Shown: positions 1,417 to 57,546, numbered from the stretch's first letter. The stretch: DNA of 64,000 nucleotides from Candidatus Nezhaarchaeales archaeon (GCA_038853715.1 JAWCJE010000001.1:117963-181962), one strand, 5' to 3'. Numbers and translations: made by a program. The notes: generated by a model from the letters alone, not told the origin.

Positions 1417-1878
1417 TTATAGCTTCTTATATACGAATATTTTATGTGTACACCAACGGTCGTAAACCTCTTCGACGCGCCAAGGACGCCAACCAGGAAC
1501 CTCGAAGTCATGGGAAACAACTCGCGCTCCAGGTTTAAGCTCTCTTTCAAGCTTTGGCCTTAATTTTTCGTTAACGCTCGTTAAAAGGTACATCGTCACG
1601 ACGTCGGCTTTACTTAAATCCACATCGTAAAAGCTTCCATGGATTACTTGAACCTCGGAGTTTAAATTGTAAAGCTTAATTTTCTCCTCTATCTGCGAGT
1701 ATAGATCCTTCCTTATTTCAACGCCGATGGCGTGAGCGCCAAACTCTTTAGCAGCTATAAACAGTATTCGTCCATCCCCAGCGCCTAGGTCGTAAACAAC
1801 GTCGCCGGGCTTAACCTCGGCTAATTGAAGCATCCTTCTTACTACGTGTTCAGGGCTACTAACGAAGGGAACGTCCAA
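1417..1878 (-). CDS. Class I SAM-dependent methyltransferase.
   Basis: Motif I 'VYDLGAGDGRILF' (GxGxG) with a downstream acidic strand. Size 153 aa. Confidence 0.7.
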   Translation of the reverse strand: MDVPFVSSPEHVVRRMLQLAEVKPGDVVYDLGAGDGRILFIAAKEFGAHAIGVEIRKDLYSQIEEKIKLYNLNSEVQVIHGSFYDVDLSKADVVTMYLLTSVNEKLRPKLERELKPGARVVSHDFEVPGWRPWRVEEVYDRWCTHKIFVYKKL

Positions 1879-1914
1879 ATGTAATCCCCCTAGGGGGTTA
1901 AGAGTAGCACTTCT

Positions 1915-2046
1915 TAAAGTTTTTTAATGAAGCGGAGAGGAAATACTTAAAGCTATGTTTAACTCCGAAGCCTTCACCATGATAGGGGGAAGACACACCG
2001 TAGCCGTAGCTAAGCAAGTAGGCGTTATAAATAGTATAAGTTACGC
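1915..2046 (+). pseudogene. Duplicated fragment of the pgk 3' coding region; a non-functional gene fragment sitting in an intergenic region.
   Basis: About 130 bp at 1915-2046 aligns at roughly 90% identity with pgk 36705-36843. It would encode 'EEILKAMFNSEAFTMIGGRHTVAVAKQVGVINSISY' against the PGK sequence 'EEILKAMANSKAFTMIGGGHTVAAAKQVGVIDSISY'. No ORF context surrounds it. Confidence 0.5.
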
Positions 2047-2169
2047 ATTAAGGCCAGCTTCCGAGCCCGAGGGCCCTTAAGCATCAATACGTGTTAAGCG
2101 TACGAAGAGCCTTTGATGGGAGGGAAAGTATAAAAGGGTGAGGGCTGCTGATTTAGCAGGTTTAGCCTC

Positions 2170-2571
2170 ATGCATACGCCTGAAGCAGTTTTCCTAAAAA
2201 GCTTAATGGATTGGGTTGAGGCCCAGAAGAAGATCTTAAACGCCTTTAAAGAGGCAGATAAGGAGCTTGAAAACGCGGATAGGTTAATGCAGGTGTTAGC
2301 TTCTAGGAACGCCTGCTTCCATATAGCTAGAACCATTAAGGGCTTCGAAAGCTGGCTTCAAAACCCTTTAGTAATAGGGCTTATGCCTAAGGAGATGGCC
2401 GACGAGGTTCGGAGGAAGCTATGGGACCTCATGAAGGAGGTAATGGAGTTCGATATAAAGCATACGAGCGACTTCACGAACCTACTGAAGAAGATGAGCG
2501 ACGAAGGCAAACTTCCACGCGTTCTCTTCGAGAAAAGGGAGGAAGCACGAAGAGTCCCCTATACGCTTTAA
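2170..2571 (+). CDS. Hypothetical protein, predicted helical.
   Basis: 133-aa ORF with normal codon usage and no recognisable motif. It overlaps a shorter antisense ORF, which I rejected. Confidence 0.4.
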   Translation: MHTPEAVFLKSLMDWVEAQKKILNAFKEADKELENADRLMQVLASRNACFHIARTIKGFESWLQNPLVIGLMPKEMADEVRRKLWDLMKEVMEFDIKHTSDFTNLLKKMSDEGKLPRVLFEKREEARRVPYTL

Positions 2572-35697: not shown

Positions 35698-36936
35698 ATG
35701 TCCAAGCTGGATTTTTTAACGATGGATGATTACGACTTTACCGGTAAGAGGGTGCTTTTAAGGGTTGACATGAACATACCGGTGGATAAAGCTACGGGGC
35801 GGCTTAAGGAGACTGCGAAGATATATGAGCATGCTAAAACGATTTTGGAGTTAGTTAGGAAGAAGGCTAAGGTGGTTGTCTTAACACATCAAGGTAGACC
35901 GGGTGAATCCGACTTTATACCGCTTGATCAGCACGTTGAAGTTTTAAGCTCGATAATAAGCCGCGTGAAGTACGTTAAGGACTTAATGGGCGAGGAGGCT
36001 GAAAGGTCCATAAAGGAATTGAAAAATGGAGAAGTCTTAGTCCTTGAAAACGTGAGGACGTGGCCGGAGGAGCTTAAGGAGCAACCTCCCGAAGAGCTTG
36101 CTAAGTCTAAGCTGGTTCAGAAGCTAGCCCCCCTCTTCGACGTCTTCGTTAACGATGCCTTCGGCGCCGCCCATAGAAGTCAAGCGTCCTTAGTGGGGTT
36201 CGCCGAAGTATTACCCACCGTCGCTGGGAGGCTTATGGAGTGGGAGCTTAAAATGCTGGTTAAAGCCGCTTCTAAACCTGAGAGGCCCTCAATATACATA
36301 CTTGGAGGGGTTAAAGCGGAAGACGCCGTAGAGGTATGTGAAGGCGTACTATCCAGGGGGGTAGCGGATAAGGTTTTAACGGGCGGCTTAATAGCCTCCA
36401 TATTCCTAACGGCTAAAGGATATAGGCTTGGAGAGCCTAATGAGCAATTGATTGAGAAGAAGGGCTTTAAAAGCATGGTTCCCGATGCACAAAAGCTACT
36501 CTCTAGGTTTGAAGGAAGGATCGTAACACCGGTGGACGTAGCCGTTGAAAAGCCTCGAGGTAAACGTAGCGAGGTTAAGGTAGGCGACCTACCCGTGGAC
36601 GCCCTAATAAAGGATGTAGGAGCTGATACGATAAACCTCTATAAGGAGGAATTAAAGGACGCTAAAACCGTGGTGTTTAGCGGCCCCCTAGGGGTTTTCG
36701 AGGAGCCCTTATTTATGAGGGGGACAGAGGAAATACTTAAAGCTATGGCTAACTCCAAAGCCTTCACTATGATAGGGGGAGGACACACCGTAGCCGCGGC
36801 TAAGCAGGTAGGCGTTATAGATAGTATAAGCTACACTTCAACGGGTGGTGGAGCGTTAACAGCCTACTTAACGGGGAAGGAGCTACCAGTAGTAACCGCG
36901 CTTAGAAAAGCCGCTCTAAGAAGACGGACTGGCTAA
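35698..36936 (+). CDS. pgk: Phosphoglycerate kinase.
   Basis: 412 aa with the N-terminal 'RVDMNIPV', 'GGGA' and the C-terminal 'GGGHTVAAA' PGK motifs. Confidence 0.9.
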   Translation: MSKLDFLTMDDYDFTGKRVLLRVDMNIPVDKATGRLKETAKIYEHAKTILELVRKKAKVVVLTHQGRPGESDFIPLDQHVEVLSSIISRVKYVKDLMGEEAERSIKELKNGEVLVLENVRTWPEELKEQPPEELAKSKLVQKLAPLFDVFVNDAFGAAHRSQASLVGFAEVLPTVAGRLMEWELKMLVKAASKPERPSIYILGGVKAEDAVEVCEGVLSRGVADKVLTGGLIASIFLTAKGYRLGEPNEQLIEKKGFKSMVPDAQKLLSRFEGRIVTPVDVAVEKPRGKRSEVKVGDLPVDALIKDVGADTINLYKEELKDAKTVVFSGPLGVFEEPLFMRGTEEILKAMANSKAFTMIGGGHTVAAAKQVGVIDSISYTSTGGGALTAYLTGKELPVVTALRKAALRRRTG

Positions 36937-37056: not shown

Positions 37057-38103
37057 GTGGTGTTTGATACGCCTAAGCCTATGGTTAAGGTATGTGTTAA
37101 CGGTTACGGCGTTATAGGTAAAAGGTGTGTTAGCGCCATCCTTAAGCAGAACGATATGAAGCTTGTTGGCATTAGCGATGTATCTGCTGATTGGCGTATT
37201 AAAATGGCGGTTAGGAAGGGGATACCTATCTACGCGGCCATTCCAGAAAGGGTGGAGGAGATGAAGAAGGCCGGAGTGGAGGTGGCTGGATCCTTAGAGG
37301 ATCTACTTAAGCAGGTCGACGTGGTTATTGATTGCACTCCAGCTAAGGTTGGAGCGCGTAATAAGGAGCTCTACGTTAAGTTGGGGGTTAAGGGGATATT
37401 TCAAGGCGGGGAGAAGCATGAGGTTGCGGGGACAAGCTTCGTAGCTCAATGTAACTACGAAGAATCCTTGGGGAAGGCCTTTACTAGGGTGGTGTCCTGT
37501 AATACGACGGCGCTTTGTAGGGTTTTAGGTGCCATCCATAAGCGGTATGGGGTTAGGAAGGTACGCGTCGTTATAGTTAGGCGCGCCGTGGATGTATGGG
37601 AAAGTGGACGCACTGGGATCATGAACACCGTGGTACCCGAAATAGGCGTGAGCCATCACGCCCCGGACGTAAAGACTGTAATTCATGACCTCGACATAGT
37701 AAGCATGGCCGCTAAAGGGGCCCATAACTTATTCCATCTACACTTCGCCATACTTGAACCGAAGGTTAAATTATCCAAGGATGAAGTGATTACTGCTCTA
37801 CGTGAAGAGCCGCGCATAGCATTAGTTAGAGGGGCTGACGGGGTCGACGGTCTCCACTCGATATTCGAAATAGGCCGCGATACCGAAAGGCCGCGAGGCG
37901 ATATATATGAGATACCGGTGTGGGAGGACGGAGTAATGGTGATCGGTGAAGAAGTATACTTAATGTGGGCAACCCCGAACGAGAGTAACGTAGTACCTGA
38001 GAACGTTGACGCGGTACGCGCGTTAACCGAAACAACCTTAGATTGGCGTGAATCCGTAGCTCAAACGGATGAGGCGTTAGGCATAACGAAAAACCTCTAC
38101 TAA
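37057..38103 (+). CDS. gap: Glyceraldehyde-3-phosphate dehydrogenase, archaeal type II.
   Basis: 'KVCVNGYGVIGKR' Rossmann motif and the catalytic 'SCNTTAL'. The true start is probably the internal ATG at 37081. Confidence 0.9.
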   Translation: MVFDTPKPMVKVCVNGYGVIGKRCVSAILKQNDMKLVGISDVSADWRIKMAVRKGIPIYAAIPERVEEMKKAGVEVAGSLEDLLKQVDVVIDCTPAKVGARNKELYVKLGVKGIFQGGEKHEVAGTSFVAQCNYEESLGKAFTRVVSCNTTALCRVLGAIHKRYGVRKVRVVIVRRAVDVWESGRTGIMNTVVPEIGVSHHAPDVKTVIHDLDIVSMAAKGAHNLFHLHFAILEPKVKLSKDEVITALREEPRIALVRGADGVDGLHSIFEIGRDTERPRGDIYEIPVWEDGVMVIGEEVYLMWATPNESNVVPENVDAVRALTETTLDWRESVAQTDEALGITKNLY

Positions 38104-40746: not shown

Positions 40747-41586
40747 GTGGGGCCGTTAAAACGCGAAATCCTAGAGCTGCTAGATAAGGATTTAGAGTTC
40801 CGCTACGCGATCGCAGGATATCTAGGGTTATCTGAGGTCTTAAAGAGACTTAATGCCTTAGTCGAGGAACAAGTAAAGCTTAGGGAGGAACAAGTAAAGA
40901 TATGGAGGGAAATAGCGTCATTAAGGGAGGAACAAGCGAAGCTAAGCGAGGAACAAGTAAAGCTTAGGGAGGAACAAGTAAAGATATGGAGGGAAATAGC
41001 GTCATTAAGGGAGGAACAAGCGAAGCTAAGCGAGGAACAAGTAAAGCTTAGGGAGGAACAAGTAAAGATATGGAGGGAAATAGCGTCATTAAGGGAGGAA
41101 CAAGCGAAGCTAAGCGAGGAACAAGTAAAGCTTAGGGAGGACTTTAATAGGATGCTTGATGAACTCAAGCGTCTCAACGTTAGACTCAGCAGGGTTGAAA
41201 GAACGCTGGAGAAGCTTACCGTTGACGTTGAAGATGAGGCTAGGTCTGTCCTCAAGCATAAGCTTAAGGAGATGGGTATAAGCGTTGAGTTAACCTCTTT
41301 AACCCTTCCAGGATTAGAGCTTAATATTTACGGCGCTTCGAACGACGTCTGCCTAATCGGTGAAGCCACCGTTAGGGCTGGGGCAGACCTTGCGGATGAA
41401 CTACTAAGGAGGCTTGAGAGGCTTAAAAGGGATTACCCTGAAAAGCTTAGAAGGAAGGTCGTGCTCGCGATTTACACCTCATTACCCATGGCCGAGCTCG
41501 TGGAGAAGGCTAAGGAGAAAGGGATCTGGCTCCTAAAAGCCACAGAAGAATTTCATAAACCCGAAAAATTATTCATAGAGCTCTAA
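40747..41586 (+). CDS. Coiled-coil protein with three identical 28-aa repeats and a C-terminal alpha/beta domain (possible PD-(D/E)xK-like 'ELNIYGASNDVCLIGEATVR').
   Basis: The repeat 'EEQVKLREEQVKIWREIASLREEQAKLS' occurs three times. The C-terminal 150 aa is non-repetitive. Confidence 0.6.
   Translation: MGPLKREILELLDKDLEFRYAIAGYLGLSEVLKRLNALVEEQVKLREEQVKIWREIASLREEQAKLSEEQVKLREEQVKIWREIASLREEQAKLSEEQVKLREEQVKIWREIASLREEQAKLSEEQVKLREDFNRMLDELKRLNVRLSRVERTLEKLTVDVEDEARSVLKHKLKEMGISVELTSLTLPGLELNIYGASNDVCLIGEATVRAGADLADELLRRLERLKRDYPEKLRRKVVLAIYTSLPMAELVEKAKEKGIWLLKATEEFHKPEKLFIEL
40864..41141 (+). repeat. Perfect direct tandem repeat of 84 bp, 3.3 copies, inside the CDS.
   Basis: Units start at 40864, 40948 and 41032 and are identical at the nucleotide level. 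A partial fourth unit runs to about 41141. Confidence 0.9.
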
Positions 41587-46470: not shown

Positions 46471-46573
46471 GTTGCTTTGTGGCTTAATTCCTAGCCCTAC
46501 ATTAACTCCACATGAGTTAACGTGAGGTATTTAATGTGGGATTAGTGAGGAGTACATAATTAAGCCACAAAGC
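46471..46573 (+). ncRNA. Copy 1 of a roughly 103-nt structured element (16-bp terminal stem 'GCUUUGUGGCUUAAUU'/'AAUUAAGCCACAAAGC' plus internal hairpins). It is a candidate small RNA or MITE.
   Basis: About 92% identical to 57444-57546. The differences keep the base-pairing intact (a t>c / a>g pair in the outer stem, and U.G to C-G or C-G to U.G changes in the inner stems). It is flanked by the palindromes 'gcttaaac...gtttaagc' and 'aagcgtttaaacgctt'. Confidence 0.5.
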
Positions 46574-57443: not shown

Positions 57444-57546
57444 GTTGCTTTGCGGCTTAATTCCTAGCCTTACATTAACTCTACACGAGTTAGCGTGAGG
57501 TATTTAATGTGGGATTAATGAGGGGTACATAATTAAGCCGCAAAGC
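57444..57546 (+). ncRNA. Copy 2 of the roughly 103-nt structured element; begins 4 nt after the TrmB-like gene stop.
   Basis: See copy 1. The outer stem is 'GCUUUGCGGCUUAAUU'/'AAUUAAGCCGCAAAGC'. Confidence 0.5.

Follow-up and report, generated by a model that had tools for sequence, protein, structure and literature searches.

MMEJ is the known end-joining route in archaea, and captured DNA is known to create promoters, both as IS-derived hybrid promoters and as promoters arising from non-promoter sequence. Experiments on archaeal break repair are limited to a few model species and have given mostly 1-2-bp indels. The crenarchaeal primase PriSL anneals on 2-4 G:C pairs, polymerises across discontinuous templates and contributes to MMEJ (PMC12019639). 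Filler insertions of the MMEJ, MMBIR or template-switch type carry a distant piece of the same genome into a break site, and in bacteria homology-facilitated illegitimate recombination (HFIR) can integrate short linear DNA through one anchored and one illegitimate joint, the anchors usually being at least 100 nt of homology (PMC3240628). Intergenic gene-fragment relics, as treated by Pseudofinder (PMC9336565), are short, decaying and non-functional pieces of genes found between genes, with a broken frame, relaxed constraint and mis-annotation as small hypothetical proteins.

Here we describe a tract of 159 nt derived from the gene pgk, located at positions 1886-2044 (plus strand) of the window, by which we mean the whole 64,000-nt stretch of DNA that was analysed. 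The tract lies in the spacer between two divergent genes, one encoding a class I SAM-dependent methyltransferase (MTase) and the other a DUF2153 protein. It is of a known kind, a gene-fragment relic that probably stems from illegitimate repair, and it is an unusually tidy archaeal example of this kind and no new type of system. All the features of intergenic relics listed above are found in it; unlike those relics, its parent gene is intact in the same genome, and it is a sharp-ended internal piece inserted in a conserved promoter spacer and not a residue of decay in situ.

With filler insertions the tract shares a donor at a distant site of the same genome, a candidate G/C-rich microhomology at the left end, the lack of transposon hallmarks, and indels and substitutions clustered near one junction; CTTA/CTTAAAG repeats hint at extra local switches. 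The documented archaeal events are, however, mostly 1-2 bp indels, whereas the present insertion would be about 150 nt and is deduced from an old, diverged product. A limited literature search found no paper on comparable long ectopic templated insertions in archaea. Integration of short linear DNA by one anchored and one illegitimate joint, as in HFIR, could also apply, with pgk DNA from a lysed sibling cell as a possible source, but the anchor would here be 5-11 nt. As with captured-DNA promoters, DNA foreign to the locus is predicted to supply the core promoter elements of the adjacent gene, the donor in this case being a housekeeping coding sequence instead of a mobile element.

The tract would provide a clean natural record of an ectopic templated insertion of about 150 nt in an uncultured hyperthermophilic archaeon. 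Its two halves are of the same age and lie in different functional contexts, which provides a built-in control when neutral mutation spectra of the lineage are studied. The left end seems to have turned into the core promoter of the gene next to it, and the replacement of a promoter by captured coding DNA can be put to the test here.

Homology between the spacer and pgk

The spacer was compared with the 64-kb window by BLASTN. Positions 1921-2044 matched pgk positions 36709-36834 on the same strand with 110 of 126 positions identical (87.3%), one 2-nt gap and an E-value of 4e-39, and the remaining spacer matches within the window were at chance level. Chance similarity is ruled out by this E-value, and the similarity is genuine homology. 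In a self-comparison of the window, the pair of pgk and spacer was the sole gene-to-spacer duplicate. Within the match, an in-frame core at 1937-2044 is identical to 36727-36834 at 98 of 108 positions (90.7%); its translation is EEILKAMFNSEAFTMIGGRHTVAVAKQVGVINSISY in the spacer copy and EEILKAMANSKAFTMIGGGHTVAAAKQVGVIDSISY in PGK. The peptide EEILKAMANSKAFTMIGGGHTVAAAKQVG is PGK's own sequence, the spacer fragment reading EEILKAMFNSEAFTMIGGRHTVAVAKQVG.

Gapped local alignment (Smith-Waterman) gave a full collinear homology of 1886-2044 with 36684-36834 (score 191), in which the 159-nt tract is a copy of 151 nt of pgk. Relative to the donor, the tract is longer by 10 nt within 1909-1927 and shorter by 2 nt at 1936/1937. 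An exact 11-mer, CCCCCTAGGGG, is found just left of both copies and occurs twice in the window, where 0.1 occurrences are expected. The left extension as a whole (1886-1915 against 36684-36713) is ungapped, with 23 of 30 positions identical and a score of 30; shuffled sequences had a mean score of 12.1 and a maximum of 24, and this score was reached by none of 2000 shuffles. In the 19 nt beyond the shared 11-mer, 13 positions are identical (P = 2e-4, the test being conditional on the 11-mer). The right end of the homology is sharp, at 2044/36834, and the flank to its right scores no better than shuffles.

An earlier note on this DNA had reported an ectopic duplicate of pgk in an intergenic spacer at about 90% identity. 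The duplicate and its location in the spacer agree with the BLASTN result, and the identity with that of the in-frame core. The note had also allowed for an identity no better than random, which is not what BLASTN of the spacer against the window returned (87.3%, E 4e-39). Its limits have to be redrawn. A copy of about 130 bp had been placed at 1915-2046 and matched to pgk 36705-36843; the copy and the match are real, but the homology reaches further left, to 1886 and 36684, and stops at 2044 and 36834 on the right. The origin from pgk was likewise correct, but the assignment to the 3' coding region was less so, the donor being an internal piece and the last 102 nt of the gene being absent from the copy.

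The donor gene pgk (35698-36936, plus strand; Pfam PF00162) is intact, encodes 412 aa and is followed on its 3' side by the gap gene (37057-38103). By the alignment, the donor segment covers 36684-36834 (plus strand), 34.8 kb from the copy in the window, and comprises 50 of the 412 codons (codons 330-379), encoding PLGVFEEPLFMRGTEEILKAMANSKAFTMIGGGHTVAAAKQVGVIDSISY. Among 5.8 billion proteins, the next-closest non-self PGK is 54-56% identical, and the fragment has 87-91% DNA identity to the lineage's own pgk. A foreign pgk was rejected as the donor, no PGK above 56% identity being present among these proteins. Because the next-closest PGK is this distant, the sequences identify the source of the tract as the lineage's own pgk or that of a very close sibling strain. 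Both DNA uptake from a sibling strain and intragenomic copying fit the sequence equally, and either may have taken place.

Eight loci taken from independent NCBI, JGI and Logan assemblies (L011-L014 and L053-L056) agree in every position of the spacer (100% identity), and an assembly chimera or other artefact is therefore ruled out. For the pgk 3' region, ten loci (L001-L010) have the same sequence. Strain variants carry 1-2 SNPs per approximately 5.5 kb and none in the spacer, and the tract is fixed in the population. The variation within the species is too clonal to inform on the tract.

The recipient spacer and its relatives

The MTase gene (1417-1878, minus strand) has a TTG start, and its 5' region now consists of pgk-derived DNA. 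Its ORF is intact and conserved; at the start, relatives have ATG GTT GAC versus TTG GAC in the window. The DUF2153 gene (2170-2571, plus strand; Pfam) is the conserved divergent partner of the MTase gene. Between the two genes the window has 291 nt, made up of 7 nt to the left of the tract, the tract itself and 125 nt to its right (7 + 159 + 125 = 291). The right remainder (2045-2169, plus strand) is free of pgk sequence and holds the TATA-like GTATAAAAGG of DUF2153 at 2128-2137, which puts TATAAAA at -41..-35 of the DUF2153 start.

MAGs under the name Candidatus Nezhaarchaeales archaeon, as well as metagenomes from hot springs, contain proteins identical to those of the window. Approximately 35 loci of other Nezhaarchaeales and related Thermoproteota keep the divergent MTase/DUF2153 pair, and tblastn with PGK and with the 41-aa ORF described below as queries found no PGK-like sequence in these relatives' loci. 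Judged from this comparison, the tract is a lineage-specific gain, none of the roughly 35 orthologous spacers having it.

The MTase search found no homologs between 77% and 100% identity, and those at 75-77% identity have a different synteny and are without pgk DNA. An exact-peptide genome scan for closer relatives gave no match. When metagenome and genome contigs were scanned by alignment, all relatives that came up had at most 69% identity, and the window's own species was not among the results. The single closer relative, the sister lineage L015, has a DUF2153 protein that is 86% identical; its 2.1-kb contig opens with the remnant of a Nextera adapter at what corresponds to window position ~2081, just right of the tract.

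The spacers of most of the closer relatives are 163-187 nt long (302 nt in L016), and those of more distant relatives 237-252 nt. Their layout starts with a CCCC run near the MTase start, complementary to a Shine-Dalgarno-like GAGGGG/GGGG. At a distance of 32-35 nt from that start follows the beginning of a box, C[CT]TAAATTTATTT, which is conserved in nine relatives, and from this box to the DUF2153 start there are about 124-127 nt, including a TATA of the TTAAAAG type about 40 nt before the DUF2153 start. The right flank in the window, at 125 nt, has the same length as this interval in relatives. Box positions were set by the distance from the start codons; MAFFT, applied to the spacers, wrongly paired the box of the relatives with the pgk-native CTTAAAGCTATG. 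The window's TAATCCCCC resembles CTAATCCCCTT of L028 and TAACCCCCTT of L047. The ancestral spacer and the junction microhomologies referred to below were deduced from relatives with 65-69% DUF2153 identity.

Decay of the tract and alternative readings

The right two-thirds of the tract (1937-2044, plus strand) decays cleanly, with no indels against pgk. Its 10 substitutions are nine transitions and one transversion, and eight of the ten change G:C to A:T when pgk is taken as ancestral. This bias matches the spectrum of spontaneous mutation in Saccharolobus islandicus, which has 59-66% GC-to-AT transitions (PMC12019639). Four of the substitutions are synonymous and six non-synonymous (dN 0.075, dS 0.193), with a dN/dS of 0.39, the expectation for one free and one constrained copy being 0.5. 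If pgk accepts synonymous changes only and the copy is free, a non-synonymous share of 64% is expected, and 60% was observed.

On these 10 substitutions, an omega on the copy of 0.1 or less is rejected (p = 0.0015), as is one of 0.2 or less (p = 0.026), and an omega of 1 fits. Three of the five amino-acid changes affect conserved PGK positions, namely G362R in the GGG motif and A367V, both at invariant residues, and A351F, at a residue that at least 90% of 14 PGKs share. Since conserved PGK residues are replaced, these three changes arose on the copy. The right part thus fits neutral decay, although, with 16 substitutions in the whole tract, a moderate constraint with an omega of about 0.3-0.5 may also have acted on it. 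For a neutral sequence of 108 nt in a compact genome, the lack of indels is slightly unexpected. The PGK frame of the left part contains stop codons, and the tract as a whole has what is expected of a relic: significant homology to a functional parent gene, a partial gene with its frame broken, and relaxed constraint.

NCBI MAGs list an ORF of 41 codons, MFNSEAFTMIGGRHTVAVAKQVGVINSISYALRPASEPEGP (1955-2080, plus strand), as a hypothetical protein. It starts at the Met350 codon of PGK and runs 12 codons into spacer DNA. A functional product of the tract would be either this 41-aa microprotein with the C-terminal motif of PGK, or a sense-decoy or antisense RNA that acts on pgk. Such a product would be in line with the ATG of the ORF and its being called by the NCBI pipeline in several MAGs, with exact runs of up to 21 nt in common with pgk mRNA and with the 108 nt kept without indels, but the substitutions fit neutrality, with an omega of 0.2 or less rejected, and the invariant GGG motif is altered. 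The ORF has no Pfam match, variants or homologs; its 90% cluster has one member, and tblastn was blank in the loci of relatives. It has no Shine-Dalgarno at a usable distance and no plus-strand YTTTAAR upstream. Purifying selection, homologs and translation signals, by which a small protein would be recognised, do not single it out.

For an RNA, Rfam had no match to the tract at the gathering threshold or at E <= 1, and folding was no better than that of shuffles (z-scores of -0.33 to +1.17 for tract and donor, and of -1.0 to +0.26 for the adjacent spacer). No YTTTAAR is placed on either strand to transcribe the well-conserved part, and no minus-strand promoter-like motif was found right of the tract. 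A scan for bacterial-type promoters and terminators gave no match, the scan model being bacterial and ill-suited to an archaeon. The copy has the same sense as pgk mRNA. A promoter and terminator of its own, structure and a known family, as expected of a regulatory sRNA, are not seen in the tract. As judged from these signals, the tract is not a gene and not a structured RNA, the ORF is probably spurious, an accidental product of the Met350 codon of PGK, and we regard a functional product as very unlikely. MEM1537780.1 and the entries identical to it are almost certainly mis-annotations and not proteins.

Archaeal integrative elements duplicate part of their target gene, and the two copies, as direct repeats 34.8 kb apart, might therefore represent attL and attR flanking an integrated element, or the scar left by one that targeted pgk. 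The 34 kb that separate the copies were scanned with Pfam, and none of their ORFs of 120 aa or more is an integrase or transposase; these ORFs are housekeeping except for three without a Pfam match, and the interior genes include those for an aminotransferase, a KaiC-like protein, PfkB, phosphoglycerate mutase, Mrp-type antiporter subunits and DNA ligase. The geometry is wrong for 3'-end integration, as pgk is intact and located downstream of the ectopic copy, which ends 102 nt short of the pgk stop codon and lacks the 3' end of the gene. Att pairs start out identical, whereas these copies differ by 13%. No terminal inverted repeats or target-site duplication surround the tract, and a scan of viral contigs found none that carries the shared 21-mer. 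For these reasons an attachment-site duplicate is excluded with near certainty, and a viral or mobile origin in general was rejected on the same lack of a viral 21-mer, of an interior integrase or transposase and of terminal or target-site repeats. The tract does not resemble a MITE or an insertion sequence either, having no such repeats and being present in two copies in 64 kb, one of which is the gene itself.

A different history would start from a whole or large second pgk between MTase and DUF2153 that was later deleted to about 150 nt. The tract has the same orientation as pgk and lies on the same replicon 35 kb away, and pseudogene erosion is common in prokaryotes (PMC9336565). However, the piece is internal, its homology breaks off at either end and leaves no residual similarity beyond, and no relative has a pgk copy at the locus. 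In addition, the flanks sum to the ancestral spacer with its conserved elements in place, and two precise deletions would therefore be needed, which makes this history improbable. Several suggestions of the earlier note can be judged from these results. A decoy or antisense regulatory fragment finds no backing in the Rfam search, the folding, the sense orientation or the placement of YTTTAAR. A past segmental duplication does not agree with the presence of just an internal piece of about 151 nt with sharp ends, and capture by a mobile element disagrees with the missing integrase, transposase, repeats and viral 21-mer. The footprint of a past recombination or template-switching event is the suggestion that is borne out: the comparison with relatives that the note had proposed showed no pgk-like DNA in about 35 orthologous spacers and an identical tract in assemblies of the same lineage, and the flanks sum to the ancestral spacer length.

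Proposed origin and the MTase-proximal end

We consider it probable that the tract arose by a microhomology-primed templated insertion or replacement during DNA repair, and that it is now mostly a relic, with a left end that may have taken over as the MTase promoter. Like templated insertions in general, it has a donor in its own genome, is absent from the ancestral locus and shows no hallmarks of transposition. A break or collapsed fork would have been repaired by microhomology-primed synthesis on an ectopic template (MMEJ/MMBIR-type), with an internal pgk piece of about 151 nt, codons 330-379, being copied into the MTase 5' region 34.8 kb away. The left joint would lie in a G/C-rich CCCC(C)T common to the ancestral spacer and to pgk codons Pro330-Leu331, and the right joint at the distal edge of the ancestral MTase TATA box. 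This candidate left microhomology is present in pgk and in the relatives L028 and L047. By analogy, a CCCC(C)T joint would suit the activity of PriSL.

About 40 nt of ancestral sequence would have been replaced or displaced by 159 nt, and the spacer would have grown from about 170 nt to 291 nt. Afterwards, the right 108 nt, as spacer DNA with no function, would have drifted under the bias towards G:C-to-A:T transitions that hyperthermophilic Thermoproteota typically show, and the left 51 nt, where the MTase needs ribosome-binding and TATA signals, would have been reshaped by small insertions, a deletion and transversions. An earlier model of a pure 124-nt insertion beyond an untouched MTase TATA box was dropped, as the homology continues to 1886.

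The neutral distance of the copy within its own lineage is about 0.075-0.1, and the dS to the L015 lineage is 0.61, about 0.3 per lineage. The event is therefore probably younger than the L015 split. From the same distances it is estimated to be far older than the present population diversity.

The remodelled left third (1886-1936, plus strand; 51 nt) contains all the indels of the tract together with five transversions and one transition. The substitution spectra of the left and right parts differ (Fisher p = 0.0076, with 16 substitutions in all). The near end of the tract is 8 nt away from the MTase start codon, and the left part overlaps the predicted MTase 5' UTR and core promoter. That the copy extends this far was absent from the earlier note.

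The left tract end is a 12-nt palindrome, CCCCCTAGGGGG (1886-1897), which on the minus strand gives a Shine-Dalgarno-like GGGGG at -13..-9 of the MTase TTG start; the CCCC(C)T of the palindrome also occurs in the spacers of L028 and L047 and in pgk. A TATA-like CTTTAAG (1913-1919, minus strand) lies at -41..-35 of the MTase start and is made of a pgk-derived CTT and an inserted AAAG. Its counterpart in relatives is ATTTAAG or ATTTAGG at about -39..-33. Among 41 other upstream regions in the window, YTTTAAR is approximately 6-fold enriched at -50..-25 over coding sequence (7.5 versus 1.25 per kb) and is found there in eight, an example being GGCTTTAAGTGG upstream of gap. The predicted ribosome-binding and TATA signals of the MTase are thus both located in DNA that is now pgk-derived.

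It is possible, but on balance doubtful, that the left third is a working core promoter and 5' UTR of the MTase which selection rebuilt after the ancestral one had been destroyed or displaced. The pgk DNA may have been tolerated through pre-existing TATA-like motifs at usable distances (CTTATTTATG; CTTTAAG on the MTase strand). The start of the tract 8 nt from the MTase gene, the GGGGG at -13..-9 and the CTTTAAG at the position both of the enriched YTTTAAR of the genome and of the relatives' box argue for such a promoter, as does the confinement of indels and of a transversion-rich spectrum to the left part (p = 0.0076). The MTase ORF is intact and conserved and must therefore be expressed from somewhere. 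On the other hand, the box, which sits at the ancestral position within DNA alignable to pgk on either side of it, may be ancestral DNA retained in a mosaic, and the clustered changes may come from error-prone synthesis near the invasion point and not from selection. The support from the motif is purely statistical, eight of 41 genes having it at this position.

We tentatively suggest that repair-copied pgk codons 330-379 might have taken the place of the MTase core promoter and 5' UTR, with selection then rebuilding the TATA and Shine-Dalgarno signals at the ancestral spacing. Perhaps this rebuilding was brought about by an insertion of about 10 nt and several transversions. If true, the locus would be a natural, datable archaeal case of a long ectopic templated insertion combined with the birth of a promoter from coding DNA.

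The left part may accordingly be read in three ways, as signals rebuilt by selection, as an ancestral box within a multi-switch mosaic, or as the result of errors in repair synthesis. A second CTTTAAG (1946-1952, minus strand) is native to pgk (donor 36736-36742) and lies 68-74 nt before the MTase start. The two sites fall within an imperfect 18-nt direct repeat, D1 (1902-1919 versus 1935-1952, 13 of 18 positions identical), which hints that the extra AAG was copied locally from the native CTTTAAG site.

Flanks of the pgk-derived tract

The pgk-derived tract (window 1886-2044) lies between a SAM-methyltransferase gene (MTase, 1417-1878, minus strand) and a DUF2153 gene (2170-2571, plus strand). 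The ATG GTT start of the MTase is present in all relatives (e.g. 4826-4840 of L017, one of the relatives' loci compared for this spacer), but is lost in the window at 1876-1885. The MTase of the window appears to start at TTG, having M-D-V-P in place of M-V-D-V-P. The pgk-derived tract has its left end directly beside the lost start, whose loss may belong to the event that produced the tract.

On the other side, ACTCCTCTTTGAGGGTTG is near-invariant across the spacers of the relatives, immediately 5' of the DUF2153 start (e.g. L017 4960-5000). This region carries a small CCTC/GAGG hairpin in the relatives and may be a 5' UTR element. In the window (2141-2169) only TGAGGGCTG is retained, followed by a different hairpin, GCTGCTGATTTAGCAGG.

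Isolation of the PGK

In terms of sequence identity, the PGK of the window (35698-36936) is unusually isolated: out of 5.8 billion proteins, the closest homolog shares 54-56% identity with it. For the neighbouring MTase and DUF2153 proteins, relatives reach 66-86%. Those of the top PGK matches that bear names are mostly from Bathyarchaeia.

Annotation and database records

A 41-aa ORF in the pgk relic (window 1955-2080) is found in GenBank as 'hypothetical protein' (MEM1537780.1, MEM2212410.1, MEM2380836.1 and MEM2497069.1) and is probably an accidental ORF. Pattern-based DUF2153 scans of metagenome-contig and genome-contig collections did not recover the window's own species, which seems to be absent from, or masked in, the collections scanned; JGI contigs of this species exist (Ga0212120_1000102 and Ga0209080_1000016). 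The public Logan contig SRR14241346_162001, a 2.1-kb contig of a sister lineage with an 86% identical DUF2153, starts with a Nextera adapter remnant, GTATAAGAGACAG (positions 1-13), across which a spurious 25-aa gene has been called.

Other repeats in the window

A second repeat pair (46471-46573 and 57444-57546), 92% identical over 103 nt, is unrelated to the pgk tract. Both copies are intergenic. Terminal inverted repeats of 16 nt (GCTTTGTGGCTTAATT...AATTAAGCCACAAAGC) bound a long hairpin in each copy, with fold z-scores of -6.1 to -7.2 and a compensatory change in the stem between the copies (GUGGC/GCCAC versus GCGGC/GCCGC). Rfam gives no match for the pair, which resembles either a MITE or a structured-RNA element.

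Furthermore, an 84-bp perfect tandem repeat (40863-41141; 3.3 copies, 100% identical) lies inside an ORF on the plus strand (40747-41586), whose coiled-coil-like product thereby contains units of 28 aa, EEQVKLREEQVKIWREIASLREEQAKLS. Strains vary in the number of repeats, the gene lengths at this place being unequal among L001-L004, four of the ten loci that share an identical pgk 3' region.
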